From the NCBI GenBank assembly GCA_964016885.1, contig OZ024748.1, forward strand, positions 46,934,001 through 46,998,000: a stretch of 64,000 nt of DNA, in the 5' to 3' direction. Numbering within the stretch: the stretch's first letter is position 1; the number at the start of each line of letters is the position of its first letter. The notes below the pieces were generated by a model, which saw nothing but the letters and a program-made list of their open reading frames with translations, was not told where the DNA came from and made no database searches. The translations under genes and the position numbers were made by a program. Shown piece by piece: positions 2,123 through 63,857 of this stretch. Origin of the DNA: Eledone cirrhosa. Lineage: Eukaryota.

Positions 2123-4363
2123 ATGTTTCCACGGTGGTTATATAGCCTAGGTATGCGTGTACGGTGTGTACGATGGAATGCTTTCCTTTTCGATAAGGGA
2201 CACGCCAGTCACTCGTCTGAATCATATGGTTTTAAATCATGTAAAAACCTACCCACAAATCCTCATCAGGATGCTTTCAAATTAGACTTAATGAATATGA
2301 CCATGAATATTACATTTCCCAAACATAGAAGTAATGTGCTGAAGAGCAACATGGAAGCACTACTCCGAACACTGCAAAATACCAATGGGATTGTTGTGAA
2401 ATCTGATAAGACCTCTAACGTGTATACCATGGATATCGATAAATACAAGAGCTTCATACGCAACCAACTACATAAGAAATAGAGAAAAACAAGGGAAACT
2501 ACACTAACGTACATTAACAACGAAGCATACAAAGTAGTGAAGAATCTCAAGATAGACGATAGAACAGAGCCGATTATACCCGCAACCCCCACCTTTAACC
2601 CGAAGGACAATAAGGTAAACTTTGACTCTAACCCTAAGATTAGACTTATATGCCCTTCGAAATCAAACATAGGAAAGATTAGCAAACATATACTTGACAG
2701 GGTAATAACTCAATTGAAAAAGAAAATAGAAATTAAACTATGGGGCAACACTTGCGAAGCAATTCGCTGGTTTAATAACGTTAAGAACAAGAATTAGTCT
2801 AAGTTTATACAATTTGACAGACGAATACTACTTTTCTCACCCAGCACTTTAAGTAAGGCCCTATTGTTTGCCAAAGTCAATTCCGACCTAACGGAGGACG
2901 AAATTAATATTATTCTAGAGGCTAGAAAAACTATTATCAAGTGTGATAACTGCTACTGGAAACGTAAGGGCAGACCCACAAACTTCGACATCACCATGGG
3001 CTCCAACGACTCGGCCGGAGGTCACCGATCTCGTGGGAATTTACATAGCCCACATACTACATGGAACATTTAGTAATCTAGAGGGGAGGGGGGAATATAT
3101 AGAGATGACGCGCTTTTATTAGTTAATAACTTAAATAACCAAAATCTTGAAAGGCTACGGAAAAACATTATAAAATCTTTTAGTGAACTGGGTCTAAAAA
3201 TAACGTACGAATACAATCTTAAAGTGGTAAATATTCTAGACGCAACTGTTAATTTAAATACCGGATTGATACGACCATTCCACAAGATAAATGAGAACCT
3301 TACCTATATCAATTTTAACTCAAACCACCCACTTTCCATGATCAAATCGGTTCCCCGTATTATTTATCTCAGAATCTCTCGCCTATCGTCTAACTCTGAG
3401 ATTTTCAGTGAACATGCTGAATACTATAATAACTAATTAAGGAATGCCGACCACCGGGATAAAATAGAATACATTGATAAGAATCTCAATAACACACATA
3501 GCCCTACACGAAATCAAAGAATACGTAACAGGGGTACAGAAATACAAGCGCACACACGCAGTACCACCAGACATACTAATAATAGAAAAGCATCACCAAA
3601 TAAATCACGTTGTAGAAAGTATATATGGTATAATCCCATTTTTAATGCTTCGATTAATGCAAAACTATCTATTTCATTATTTAAGTCAATTAACAAGCAT
3701 TTCCCTAATTCCCATAAATACAGTAAAATTCTAAACTCTAAGACTATTAAGCTATCATACTCCACTGCACCAAACCTTGAAGAATACATTAAAAAAACTT
3801 AACTTAAAGCAATTAAACAACACTACAAAACAAAATATTTTAATAACAGATGAGCATAACCTAGTATCGGCCTCCTAACCACTAAATGGGCGACGGGTAT
3901 TACACAACCCACCTGAACCTGCTACCCACAATAAAATCTATAACTGCCACCTACCTGAAAGATGTCCATTGAAGAATTAATGCCTAAAATCCAACATTGT
4001 TTATCAATGCATTGTCGAATCGAACGACCAGAAATGGTATTACATCGGGTCTACCACCACCTCCTTTAAATCTCGCTGGTATCGTCATCGATTCTCAATT
4101 AAACATCCTAATCACCGTTTTATGACCACGCTCGCCAATAAGACCTGGCAACTCCGTGACGCAACCAACAGGCCACCTTGAAATGGCATATACTTTCCAG
4201 CGCTAGTGCATATCGGAGTAGATTGAAGTACTGCAGGTTATGTAACCTTGAACTCTTTTACATCTTAAAATCCAAAAATAAATTACTAAATGACAGAATC
4301 GAACGATCATTATACTGAAACCATAAACTGAAGGCTAAATTCTCTCACTATAAAATAACTTAA
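2123..4363 (+). pseudogene. Decayed Penelope-like element ORF (RT + GIY-YIG), resembling the Hydra-type PLE clade
   Basis: Fragments across stops and frameshifts: YGFKS, KSDKTSNVY, NPKIRLICPSKSNIGKISK, FDITMGSNDSA, GIYRDDAL (~3090-3115), ILDATVNL, YINFNSNHP, IWYNP, IKLSYS, (Y)NCHLPERCPL (CxCx5C-like, 3939-3971), IVYQC..WYYIGST..FKSRWYRH, CRLCNLE..LLN. Confidence 0.88.
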
Positions 4364-8846: not shown

Positions 8847-9199
8847 AAAAAGAGATGAAATCGAAAATGCAACTGGAGTCTTATTTTTTTTTTAAATATA
8901 TATATTTATTTGGTTCCTTTACCGGTTTCGCAGTTCTTCTGCTTTTCAAAAGTAGAGTTGAGATGGAGGGTCTGTGGTTTTTCTCACATCTGATGTGAGA
9001 AAAACCACAGACCCTCCATCTCAACTCTACTTTTGAAAAGCAGAAGAACTGCGAAACCGGTAAAGGAACCAAATAAATATATATATTTTTAAAAAAAATA
9101 AGACTCCAGTTGCATTTTCGATTTCATCTCTTTTTCTTTATACTTTCACTCGTGTAGGACACCTCGGTTATTTTTCATTTTGTTTAAAAAAAACCTCAC

Positions 9200-33529: not shown

Positions 33530-33831
33530 ATATACACACACACACATTAGCTGGCCATGTAGTGTAAACAATGACGGCTTATGTTATATCTATATAAAAA
33601 TGTTTGTTGGTTGGTTGGTTGGTTCCTACTCGCTCACACAAGAGATACAAAACATGGAGACATTCAGATGTGACGAATATCAGAACGCTGAACTTCTATA
33701 ATCTCCCCCCCCCCCACCTCCTCAGCCATTATATATATGTGTGTATTAATTACCCCTTCCTTCCTCAGTCATCTCTAGTGTGAGACGGACATATACAAAA
33801 GGTTATTATAATAGTATGTATATATATATAT

Positions 33832-34114
33832 AACAAACAAAGAGGGTGTGGTAAGATACCAGGTAGACAATAATACACCAGAGTACTCAATACTTAGAGT
33901 AGTAGAGTGGTTAATCCGAAAAGAGTCAGGACTCCAACGGCCAGAAAAGGCCAGCAATTACCTAGTACATTACTGGTACTTTATTTTATCGACCCCGTAA
34001 GGATGAAAGGCAAAGTTGACCTCGGCGGGATTTGAACTCAGAATGGAAAGGGACGTAAGTCTATGCCTCAAAGCATGGCGTCCGACCCTCTACCGACACT
34101 GCCAATCCACCGCC
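33832..34114 (-). mobile_element. Family C-related tail fragment (33832-33935) fused to a SINE (33946-34114)
   Basis: GTGGTAAG..ACCAG..GAGTACTCAATACTTAG..GTAGTAGA as at 63635-63715, followed directly by SINE sequence. Confidence 0.7.
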
Positions 34115-34619: not shown

Positions 34620-34802
34620 GAACCAGTAAGACCCCGACAGCTGAGCTCAAGCCGTTTCGACGGCTAATTCTGAATTAGCCGTCGAAACGGCTTGAGCTCA
34701 GCTGTCGGGGTCTTACTGGTTCCTATTACCCACTCTACTACCTCAAGTATTGAGTACTTTGGTGCGTTATGGTCCACCTGGTTCCTTACCACATCTCATT
34801 CG

Positions 34803-34804
<2 letters not shown>
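34620..34804 (+). mobile_element. Fold-back element family C: perfect 51-bp arms, 1-nt loop, 80-bp tail
   Basis: Arms 34620-34670 and 34672-34722. Carries the hammerhead 3' half GAA-ACGGCT..AGCTGT-C-GGGGT. Confidence 0.85.
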
Positions 34805-34895
<91 letters not shown>

Positions 34896-38030: not shown

Positions 38031-38060
38031 AAATATACTTATTACTATATATATATATAT

Positions 38061-38249
38061 AGGAAAAAGTATGACCCCGACGGCAGAGCTCAAGCCGTTT
38101 CGACATCTATTTTCAGAAATAGACGTCGAAACAGCTTGAGCTCTGCCGTCGGGGTCATACTTTTTCCTATTTCAGACTCTACTACCCTAAGTATTGAGTA
38201 CTCTGGTGCGTTATGGTCCATCTGGTTCCTTACCACAATTCTTTTGTTA
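38061..38249 (+). mobile_element. Fold-back element family C
   Basis: Arms centred at ~38114. Same tail as the 34620 copy. (TA)n flanks. Confidence 0.85.
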
Positions 38250-38495: not shown

Positions 38496-39690
38496 AGGAA
38501 CCAGTAAGACCCCGACAGCTGAGCACAAGCCGTTTCGACGGCTAATTCTGGACTAAATGAAAATTTATCCTGGTATTTAAATAGCCGATCTTCTCAAGGG
38601 GTAATTCCATATATGGTCAAAGTGATTGTCAAAAATCAGTAGTAATTCAGTGGTTGCACATTAGTAGGGGAGATGGTGGCTAAACCTGCCAGTAGGAGAA
38701 AGAGGGGAGGGGGTGGAGTAGACCCAATCAAGCGTTGGTAGTGCCAGCTACAGCTGGGCATGAGGTCAAAGAAGATACAGGGGAGGGGGAGGGGGAGGAA
38801 GTCGGAACGGTAGGTAGAACAATGGGGGGTAGAAATAGGAAAGAAAAAAAAAAAAAAAAAATACTGAGAGTGAAGAAAGGCAAATAAGTGTAAAGAAAAG
38901 TAAAGTAAATTAAATTCTACGACCTAGGTGTCAGGCTATTGTTAGGCGAGAATAAAATAAATAAAGAAAGAAAGAAGTAAAAAAATAAATAAATGAATAA
39001 ATAAGGAAATAAGTAAGAGAACTAGGTGGGACGGATAAGGCAAGGACCCTTTTAAGAGGTATAAGTACGTAAATGATACGGTGACGGGTCAACAAAAGGG
39101 GCCAAAATACTAAAGAGACTACCACGAAATAAACAATAAAGGTTTCCATCCCGGGCCAGCAACGACCCAGTGCAGCAAAGTGAACTTGTACGAGATAATA
39201 ATTCTGAGTCCCGAGAAAAATATATACTAATGCTAACTCTAAAAGATCTAAAACAAGCTACATGAAAGTTCGTACGAAATAAAGGTAGAATACGGAGAAA
39301 TAAATTCAGAATCCACACCGCCCAGAAGAAAAGCGAAGCAAGAAATACTGAAACGAAAAAATAAGGCATGTGCCACTAAGAAATATAGAGGGCACAGAGA
39401 ATAGTGGGAGCGGTCGGAAAAAGGGGGAAAGTATCCGGGGTCTAAGCCAACTGCTATAAAGGGCGGAGTCCGCCAAATCTATCAAAGACTAGGGGAGGGG
39501 TGGGGGTGGGGGTACTAAGGCTACATGGGGCCAAAGGGCAGCCTCGGGTGGGCGAGAAAAGACGCCGACAAAGGAGAAGAGCTGGGGTAGAAGGACAAAG
39601 GGGAGAGGGGGGAAGGAAATAAAGGAAGCGATAAAAGAATACAAAGAAGATCTTACGTCTTCCTTGGCAAGCAGGGGTTACCTATTGCAA
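38496..39690 (-). mobile_element. Long (~1.2 kb) family C element without recognisable ORF; probable parent form
   Basis: First ~55 bp match the family C arm, then unique purine-rich (+ strand) sequence continues. Distal boundary approximate. Confidence 0.65.
38509..38602 (-). ncRNA. Complete type I hammerhead ribozyme, U3-A8 variant
   Basis: Minus strand: ACCCC-TTGAGAA-GA(T)CGGCTA..TAGCCGTC-GAA-ACGGCT TGTGCTC AGCTGT-C-GGGGT. GUC triplet. Confidence 0.78.
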
Positions 39691-39730
39691 AAATTATATA
39701 TATATAATAACTAGAAAAAAATTATATATA

Positions 39731-39870
39731 TATAATAACTAGAAATTGATTAACATATAAATAAACATGAATAATCACCTACCTAGCTATGTGTGCTTAC
39801 ACACTTGTAAAAATGATCTCCTGTGATTATTCATGTTTATTTATATGTTAATCAATTTCTAGTTATTATA
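39731..39870. repeat. Perfect 48-bp inverted repeat with 44-nt spacer next to (TA)n
   Basis: 39731-39778 is the reverse complement of 39823-39870. Confidence 0.85.
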
Positions 39871-53709: not shown

Positions 53710-53811
53710 AAACAAAGAGGGTATGGCAAGATACCAGGTGGACCATAACGAACAAGAATACTCAAAACGTAGGGTAGTAGAGTTTGTAATAGGAAGAGTC
53801 AGGACTCTTTT

Positions 53812-53815
<4 letters not shown>
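53710..53815 (-). mobile_element. Family C-related tail with miniature fold-back
   Basis: Tail similar to 33832-33935. Ends ATAGGAAGAGTC-AG-GACTCTTTTCCTAT. Confidence 0.65.
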
Positions 53816-53898
<83 letters not shown>

Positions 53899-63447: not shown

Positions 63448-63628
63448 CTGTTTCTACTTTAGGCACAAGGCCAGCAACTACCCAGTGCCTCACTGGTACT
63501 TTATTTTATCGACCCCGTAAGGATGAAAGGCAAAGTCAACCTCGGCGGGATTTGAACTCAGATCGTAAAGGGACGTAACTATGCTAGAAAGCATGGCGTC
63601 CGACCCTCTACCGATACTACCAATCCAC
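63447..63628 (-). mobile_element. SINE copy
   Basis: Family match. Confidence 0.88.
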
Positions 63629-63634
63629 ATATAT

Positions 63635-63815
63635 AACGAAGGAATTGTGGTAAGGAACCAGATGGACCATAACGCACCTTAGTACTCAATACTTAGGGTA
63701 GTAGAATGGGTAATAGGAACAAGTATGACCCCGACGGCAGAGCTCAAGCCGTTTCGATGGCTATTTCTGGACTAGCCCTCGAAACGGCTTGAGCTCTGCC
63801 CTCGGGGTCATACTT

Positions 63816-63819
<4 letters not shown>
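63635..63819 (-). mobile_element. Fold-back element family C, tail on the left
   Basis: Arms around loop 63764-63772. Tail is the reverse complement of the 38061 copy's tail. Confidence 0.85.

Positions 63820-63857
<38 letters not shown>

Follow-up and report, generated by a model that had tools for sequence, protein, structure and literature searches.

Insertions of a Hydra-like Penelope element in Eledone cirrhosa suggest two RNA templates and a hammerhead that cuts

Introduction

The closest described relatives of the element reported here are the Hydra clade, C-terminal EN+ Penelope-like elements (PLEs) (Craig et al., 2021, PMC8557442), for which partial tandems, an inverted 5'-truncated copy and a tail on one side only are part of a known PLE architecture. 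The PLE hammerheads are described as type I motifs in the pLTR, and a 2014 proposal saw in them a route of cleavage, circularisation and more-than-unit reverse transcription, given without in vivo evidence in the part of that account on which we draw (Cervera and de la Pena, 2014, PMC4209133). In vitro, the Poseidon element PAc of Anolis nicks both target strands and extends them from two start sites that define its tail; cleavage was unnecessary for insertion in vitro, and in the account available to us in part no reads were found to end at the cut site (Frangieh et al., 2024, PMC11167929). In Drosophila Penelope, according to a source consulted in excerpt, the promoter is internal, of Inr/DPE type, and lies in the pLTR (PMC2377424). 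The role of the hammerhead in PLEs has been called unclear (PMC8557442), and this role, together with the origin of inverted and tandem PLE insertions, is a stated open question in the sections of these papers that we cite (PMC8557442, PMC4209133, PMC11167929).

We describe here a family found in a 64,000-nt stretch of the Eledone cirrhosa genome (GCA_964016885.1, contig OZ024748.1, positions 46,934,001 to 46,998,000 of the forward strand; hereafter the window). Like the Hydra clade as described, it has a single ORF, DKT, CxCx5C, CxxC and CxH motifs, a hammerhead and (TA)n targets, as well as partial tandems, an inverted 5'-truncated copy and a tail at one end. Unlike that clade, whose members are generally shorter than 3 kb, it has a unit of 3.5 kb with a 3'UTR of 1.2 kb; it has RWR rather than RWK, a tail of ~80 nt rather than 30-40, and at least 13,102 sharp-edged palindromes, which the part of the Hydra-clade account available to us does not describe (PMC8557442). 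With PAc it shares an AT-rich target, a hammerhead upstream of the start points and, so far as genomic copies can suggest it, two tail-defining starts of reverse transcription and the nicking and extension of both target strands; PAc is of a different clade, its minimal hammerhead overlaps the ORF start and the available account gives no sign of its cleavage in vivo, whereas 16 genomic copies here carry inserts at the cut site (PMC11167929). The hammerhead is like those described for PLEs in being of type I, in the pLTR, with U3-A8 and a palindromic loop III, and in occurring as opposite-strand pairs 100-700 bp apart (PMC4209133). Animal non-LTR retrozymes likewise have type I hammerheads, tandem copies and likely circular intermediates (a circle is what we propose here), but they are described as non-coding monomers of 170-400 nt, against a coding unit of 3.5 kb in our family (PMC7229834; bioRxiv 10.64898/2026.07.22.740005), and our short palindromes hold half a ribozyme, unlike retrozymes. 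The family is a new member of a known Penelope type, and may already be listed in the supplements of PMC8557442 (family and hammerhead lists). A search mostly of papers outside subscription found no published report of inserts at the cut site or of the sharp edge described below.

Results

The window element and its hammerhead

The long copy in the window and its ribozyme motif are as follows.

38496..39692, minus strand: tail-less Hydra-like Penelope copy, 5'-truncated to its 3'UTR/pLTR and inserted in (TA)n
38508..38603, minus strand: type I hammerhead motif, U3-A8 variant, with core and three stems; predicted cut 38514/38513

Judged against its longer copies, this 1.2-kb element is the truncated 3' end of an autonomous Hydra-like Penelope retrotransposon. 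It is 93.8% identical to the 3'UTR of the ORF-bearing copy L037 and starts ~23-25 nt past the L037-type stop codon; longer copies run on into the ORF, with 5' ends scattered among copies. A first-pass annotation of the window had described a 1.1-kb body without a recognisable ORF, and indeed the longest stop-free stretch is 108 aa, the element having lost its own ORF. That annotation had also made the element the "parent" of the short copies and its product a non-coding, retrozyme-like RNA, while allowing that the body might prove an unrelated LINE fragment: it is instead a truncated sibling, and the body is a Penelope 3'UTR, that of a 721-aa ORF for an RT with a putative endonuclease. When the 3.0-Gb genome was searched for the hammerhead end, with 40 of 388 candidates scored, there were 41 matches, many of them head-to-head inverted pairs with scattered junctions.

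Other features of the window include an AT-rich, duplicated stretch of ~29 nt (39691-39745) right at the 5' junction of the long copy, a frameshifted second Penelope ORF of a different family (2168-4342, plus strand; 33-38% identity to the L037 protein by tblastn) and a perfect ~40-bp hairpin (8949-9033) unrelated to the palindromes of this family.

Positions below are counted from the predicted cut in the sense of the element, that is, on the window minus strand: C17 is -1 (38514), +1 is 38513, -40 is 38553 and -41 is 38554. The hammerhead had been annotated as complete (U3-A8, stem II, GUC), and so we find it at 38508-38603 on the minus strand: a stem I of 5 bp, the UUGAGAA core, stem II (CGGCUA/UAGCCG) around 37 nt, GAAA, a stem III of 6 bp and GUC, with the core and three stems of the type I motif expected in an EN+ Penelope pLTR. 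The minimum free energy structure has hammerhead topology at a stability that is not unusual (z -1.11), and the 37-nt "loop" of stem II is predicted to contain a further helix; Rfam, run on the window and on the element, gave no hammerhead and returned nothing beyond noise from microsatellites and hairpins. In an alignment of 13 copies drawn from several subfamilies the stems are paired in 92% of cells, with no compensatory pair change among these close sequences. Stem III varies, as the annotation had said: one pair is G-C in 9/13 and G-U in 3/13 sequences, and the closing pair is U-A in 8/13 and unpaired in 5/13.

In loop III, TGTGCTC replaces the palindromic TGAGCTC at 38524-38530 and in L037, L038, L041, L042, L048, L050 and L163; this is a recurrent change, found in scattered arms of different subfamilies and sometimes in a single arm of an insertion. 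There is also a subfamily (L223, L162, L352, L356, L367) with C3 opposite A8 in the hammerhead core, three copies of which nevertheless have inserts at the cut site.

The autonomous element

L037 has an intact ORF of 721 aa with RT motifs, DKT at residue 117, RWR at residue 37 (RW[KR] in 29 of 30 aligned proteins), a CxCx5C linker (residues 572-580), CxxC (670-673) and CxH (698-700). An IY..YIG motif, present at residue 592 and in 25 of 30 aligned proteins, marks a candidate C-terminal GIY-YIG endonuclease. Neither Pfam nor a PDB sequence search gave a match for this ORF; Foldseek, run with a model of the protein (pLDDT 86.9), returned telomerase RTs as its top five matches. L037 thus has the single ORF with a telomerase-like RT typical of EN+ Penelope elements, which the window copy has lost. 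Of 8,000 candidates that were scored, 2,016 are relatives of this protein. By its motifs the protein appears to fit the Hydra clade, that is, DKT (not DKG) with the RWK-type motif, and a CxCx5C linker with CxxC/CxH around conserved E and N, and the family inserts in (TA)n; "Hydra-like" is a label set by this published description, as available to us, rather than by a tree (PMC8557442). The coding unit, at 3,531 nt (~3.53 kb), exceeds the clade's general length of <3 kb, a descriptive figure and not a strict one. Partial tandems, an inverted 5'-truncated copy and a tail on one end, all marks of EN+ Penelope elements, are present.

A 16-kb insertion (L370-L371, G000:C1:437.198-437.214 Mb) provides the tandem copies that the first-pass annotation had recommended looking for: it holds 4.5 units of 3,531 nt at 99.96% identity, in which four ORFs of 717 aa are open, together with a tailed arm of 287 nt in inverted orientation. 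From these near-identical units and open ORFs the family looks recently active. The array fits copying round a circle; it may also be a read-through multimer, a later duplication or an assembly artefact.

Short palindromes

The window contains five further, shorter insertions.

34620..34806, plus strand: palindromic insertion of the long copy's subfamily, inverted tail-less arm (to -37) and tailed arm (from -35)
38060..38249, plus strand: palindromic insertion of a second subfamily, inverted tail-less and tailed arms, junction at about -34/-37
63634..63822, minus strand: palindromic insertion of the second subfamily, tailed arm to -42 and tail-less arm from -31
33826..33941, minus strand: tail-containing fragment of a related subfamily
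53710..53820, minus strand: very short insertion, again of a related subfamily, whose tailed arm extends to about +4 and joins a few bases of the opposite arm

The three palindromes, two of which belong to another subfamily than the long copy, turn around at about one place, as had been noted, between -31 and -42. They had also been said to share an outer end with the long copy, which holds for their tail-less arms (these and the long copy end at +19/+20 in (TA)n) but not for the other arm of each, which has an extra tail of ~80 nt and reaches about +100. The third palindrome (63634..63822) adjoins a SINE-like repeat (63465-63620), which we presume to resemble a common octopus repeat.

Genome-wide, an exact pattern matched at least 13,102 short palindromes, against one match for the reversed control. 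Junctions were analysed in the first 50 palindromes by position, 48 of which have the tail on exactly one arm. These 50 contain 39 different junction sequences, some of which differ by later mutation alone; the commonest occurs in five, and one junction register (a 14-nt spacer) accounts for 18. Types of junction are shared between two subfamilies and occur either way round with respect to the tail. Mapping of the junctions, which the annotation had proposed, thus finds the hot spot real and the junctions of these 50 not randomly scattered.

The edge at -40/-41

Most short arms end at a sharp edge, which lies near a second sequence of interest.

38551..38556, minus strand: edge at -40/-41 (38553/38554), where most short arms end; Inr-like TTAGTC, putative RNA 5' end
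38576..38583, minus strand: putative TATA-like element TATTTAAA, its first base 29 nt upstream of the A at -41

Exact-match arms number 33,083 at -40, 26,181 at -41, 16,029 at -42 and 11,582 at -44 in the whole genome, a subfamily with C at -42 explaining a small part of the drop at that position (of 51 arms in the picked set, 4 have the hammerhead in full). In 30 of 48 palindromes the end of the longer arm is at -40/-41, and solo arms (L307, L320, L329, L330, L333) also begin there. Among 30 arms that reach -44, 20 hold the whole hammerhead and the ends of the other 10 spread to -45. The 3' strand of stem II occupies -24 to -31 and the edge lies beyond it; an upper helix, also predicted, has its end near -37 to -44 and might make RT pause.

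AGT at -41 to -39 is invariant in 13/13 aligned hammerheads, within TTAGT or TCAGT, which we take to resemble the initiator (Inr) consensus, and the TATA-like TATTTAAA shares positions with the 5' strand of stem II. Inspected by eye, the junctions show no evident cap-derived base; here a G before -40/-41 is confounded by the partner arm, and a scan with a sigma-70 promoter model, which is not applicable to an animal promoter, gave nothing. A 3' splice site at the edge was rejected, since arms retain the AG of the would-be intron and do not continue into a common exon. In L213, L226 and L326 long runs of T or A stand at the junction just upstream of the -41 edge, which suggests slippage or untemplated addition. 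That an RNA with its 5' end at -41 exists seems to us very likely from the distribution of arm ends.

Inserts at the predicted hammerhead cut

A first search had found two copies with A-rich letters exactly at the cut. A pattern allowing 3-19 extra bases there gave 147 matches, 100 of them listed, and a narrower pattern gave 18; checking the loci left 14 family insertions with A/T-rich inserts at the cut, found without selection. Matches were dropped because they were not family arms or not A/T-rich: 7 of the 18 from the narrower pattern (L349, L354, L357, L360, L363-L365) lay outside the family, and those dropped from the wider one were GC-rich or G-run slips, local duplications and one unrelated repeat. 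The 16 insertions in total all have different inserts, of 5-30 nt, with 194 of 215 letters A/T; two inserts start or end with G, so that their register is ambiguous by one base. The control site lies 3 nt upstream, and none of the 100 matches listed for it (of 115) was A/T-rich; the inserts are rare (16 seen) and the comparison is with this one control position. An origin as filler from local DNA was rejected, the longest local match being within the shuffled range for all 17 arms, of which the shortest are uninformative. In one insertion both arms have a common insert (L358; L358 and L359 are one insertion), and in L353 the partner arm stops at +1.

Twelve of the 14 unselected insertions extend past -100, two stop before -33 and none ends at the edge; if 0.35 of arms pass, 12 out of 12 would do so with a probability (0.35^12) of 3e-6. 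On the indirect evidence of these inserts we consider cleavage by the hammerhead in vivo highly probable.

Discussion

Two cDNAs or one

The palindromes had been annotated as by-products of reverse transcription of the long element's family, an idea that our results support; the more specific proposal, that RT stalls at stem II and copies its own cDNA, fares less well. The edge lies past the 3' strand of stem II and 12/12 arms with tailed cut sites cross it, so that a stall at stem II is unsupported, and a universal stall at -41 should often have paired long arms with edge arms. The loci analysed contain 176 head-to-head pairs, and the 24 entries with a long arm reduce to 23 distinct insertions (L024 and L030 are one): 18 are long-long, 5 are long plus tail-only and none is long plus edge. 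(Edge-edge pairs number 124, a count inflated by the choice of loci.)

Self-copying further requires that the tailed arm contain the other. In the 48 palindromes the tailed arm is the longer in 19, the tail-less arm in 19 and neither in 10, which does not fit; the tailed arm stops inside the tail in L314, L315, L328, L126 and L185, whose tail-less arms extend as far as -41 to -43; in 10 of the 15 long pairs in which one arm is tailed, that arm is the shorter; and in many insertions neither arm contains the other. There is still something to be said for a single cDNA that is halted by RNA structure around stem II, folds back and serves as its own template, after which the hairpin would be resolved on either strand or its loop would flip later: resolution on either strand could itself yield the symmetry of arm lengths, the dominant register (18/50) would be a loop of 2-6 nt, a helix is predicted at the edge, arms of the same insertion share private variants (L037, L358), and self-priming has been proposed for PLE palindromes in a source that we know in part (PMC3846280). 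We nevertheless consider it unlikely, given the 19:19 lengths and ten equal-arm junctions, the arms that do not contain each other and the solo arms at the same edge; the 0/23 long-plus-edge pairs and the 12/12 pass-through argue against any stall intrinsic to the sequence. Two cDNAs primed separately and joined at their 3' ends are the simpler reading, in view of the symmetric lengths, the non-nested arms, the solo edge arms and the two-start priming of the Anolis element, and independent priming is, by these features of the copies, likely.

Some tailed arms stop at +20, where the other arm starts (L023, L282), and some arms begin exactly at +1 (L285, L353).

Two proposed templates

A second template is suggested by the lack of long-plus-edge pairs among the 23 insertions above and by the 30 copies that include the ORF start: none of these begins at -40/-41, 26 running past the edge and 4 ending short of it. 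As the best explanation overall, to which we give a probability of about 0.65, we propose that palindromes are run-off products of one RNA and that long arms and arrays are copied from another that was cut and rejoined. Within this explanation the ORF-bearing element, the one-arm tail, the sharp edge and the independent arm lengths are observed. Priming from the two ends of a cut (TA)n target would start RT at +19 and at about +100 on the RNA, and RT would run off an RNA whose 5' end is likely at -40/-41; the two short cDNAs, joined head to head, would make the palindrome. The -41 end may be the start of a promoter-initiated transcript, and initiation at an internal promoter seems to us rather probable on the motifs at the edge; such an RNA would lack the 5' half of the hammerhead and so be unable to cut itself. 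The second template would be a unit-length RNA, cut by the hammerhead and then rejoined, either as a circle or in effect by an end-to-end jump of RT. Having no end at -41, it would give long arms, scattered ends and multi-unit tandem arrays, and occasional 3' tailing before rejoining would place A/T-rich letters at the cut site. Between the two forms of rejoining, we lean slightly towards a circle.

Retroviral minus-strand strong-stop DNA is a run-off cDNA of this kind, made from a start site near the RNA 5' end, and in L1 twin priming both target ends are primed on one RNA. Unlike the retroviral case, there is neither a tRNA primer nor an LTR integrase in the Penelope element here, and the outcome is an inverted duplication rather than the inversion of L1 twin priming.

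Other origins of the edge and of the palindromes

The same two cDNAs could be made if the -41 end came from RNA processing or decay, a nuclease being halted by the folded ribozyme or by a bound protein, and not from a promoter. The genomic evidence for a second class of RNA fits this equally, and the junctions show no cap signature; we hold it to be about as improbable as self-copying, the AGT being invariant in 13/13 and its context resembling the Inr consensus. A promoter of the Inr/DPE type, moreover, is described inside the pLTR of Drosophila Penelope in the excerpt cited above (PMC2377424).

If the palindromes were instead a non-autonomous, MITE-like family spread from one or a few master copies, as the best 40 matches to the 34620 copy might suggest (99-100% identical over 186 nt, with the same junction in 29 of 30 examined, all selected by similarity), they should have the uniform structure of a master. 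They do not: a single MITE ancestor, which the annotation had itself weighed, is rejected by the 39 junction sequences among 50 position-ordered copies and by junction types common to subfamilies and to both tail orientations. MITE-like amplification as their general origin is therefore largely refuted and very improbable, although secondary amplification of some palindrome copies may have occurred.

That the long copy is a non-coding retrozyme, a reading suggested by its ORF-less 1.2-kb body and by the link drawn between animal retrozymes and PLE pLTRs in a preprint known to us in part (bioRxiv 10.64898/2026.07.22.740005), is refuted by the ORF-bearing copies and has next to no probability left: longer copies, with scattered 5' ends, contain this body and run on into the ORF, and the tandem unit is a coding one of 3,531 nt, not a non-coding monomer of 170-400 nt with a complete hammerhead.

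What the two RNAs would mean for the family

Run-off from one RNA and copying of a second, cut and rejoined, bear on more than this locus. A young, high-copy family with intact ORFs here speaks, through its genomic copies, for RNA that is cut and rejoined precisely at the ribozyme site, and the sharp edge, if it is an RNA end, sorts the insertions into two classes; both the inserts and the edge give single-base predictions. Thousands of hairpin repeats, which annotation could file as MITEs or microRNA precursors, are reclassified.

More tentatively, and at somewhat less than even odds, these DNA fossils may keep the whole RNA cycle of a Penelope element, with the ribozyme as a switch between message and transposition template. 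The unit RNA would be cut in vivo, sometimes tailed, circularised and copied into long arms and 4.5-unit arrays, while a separate mRNA would start inside the ribozyme, thereby inactivating it, and would give rise to dead-end "strong-stop" palindromes.
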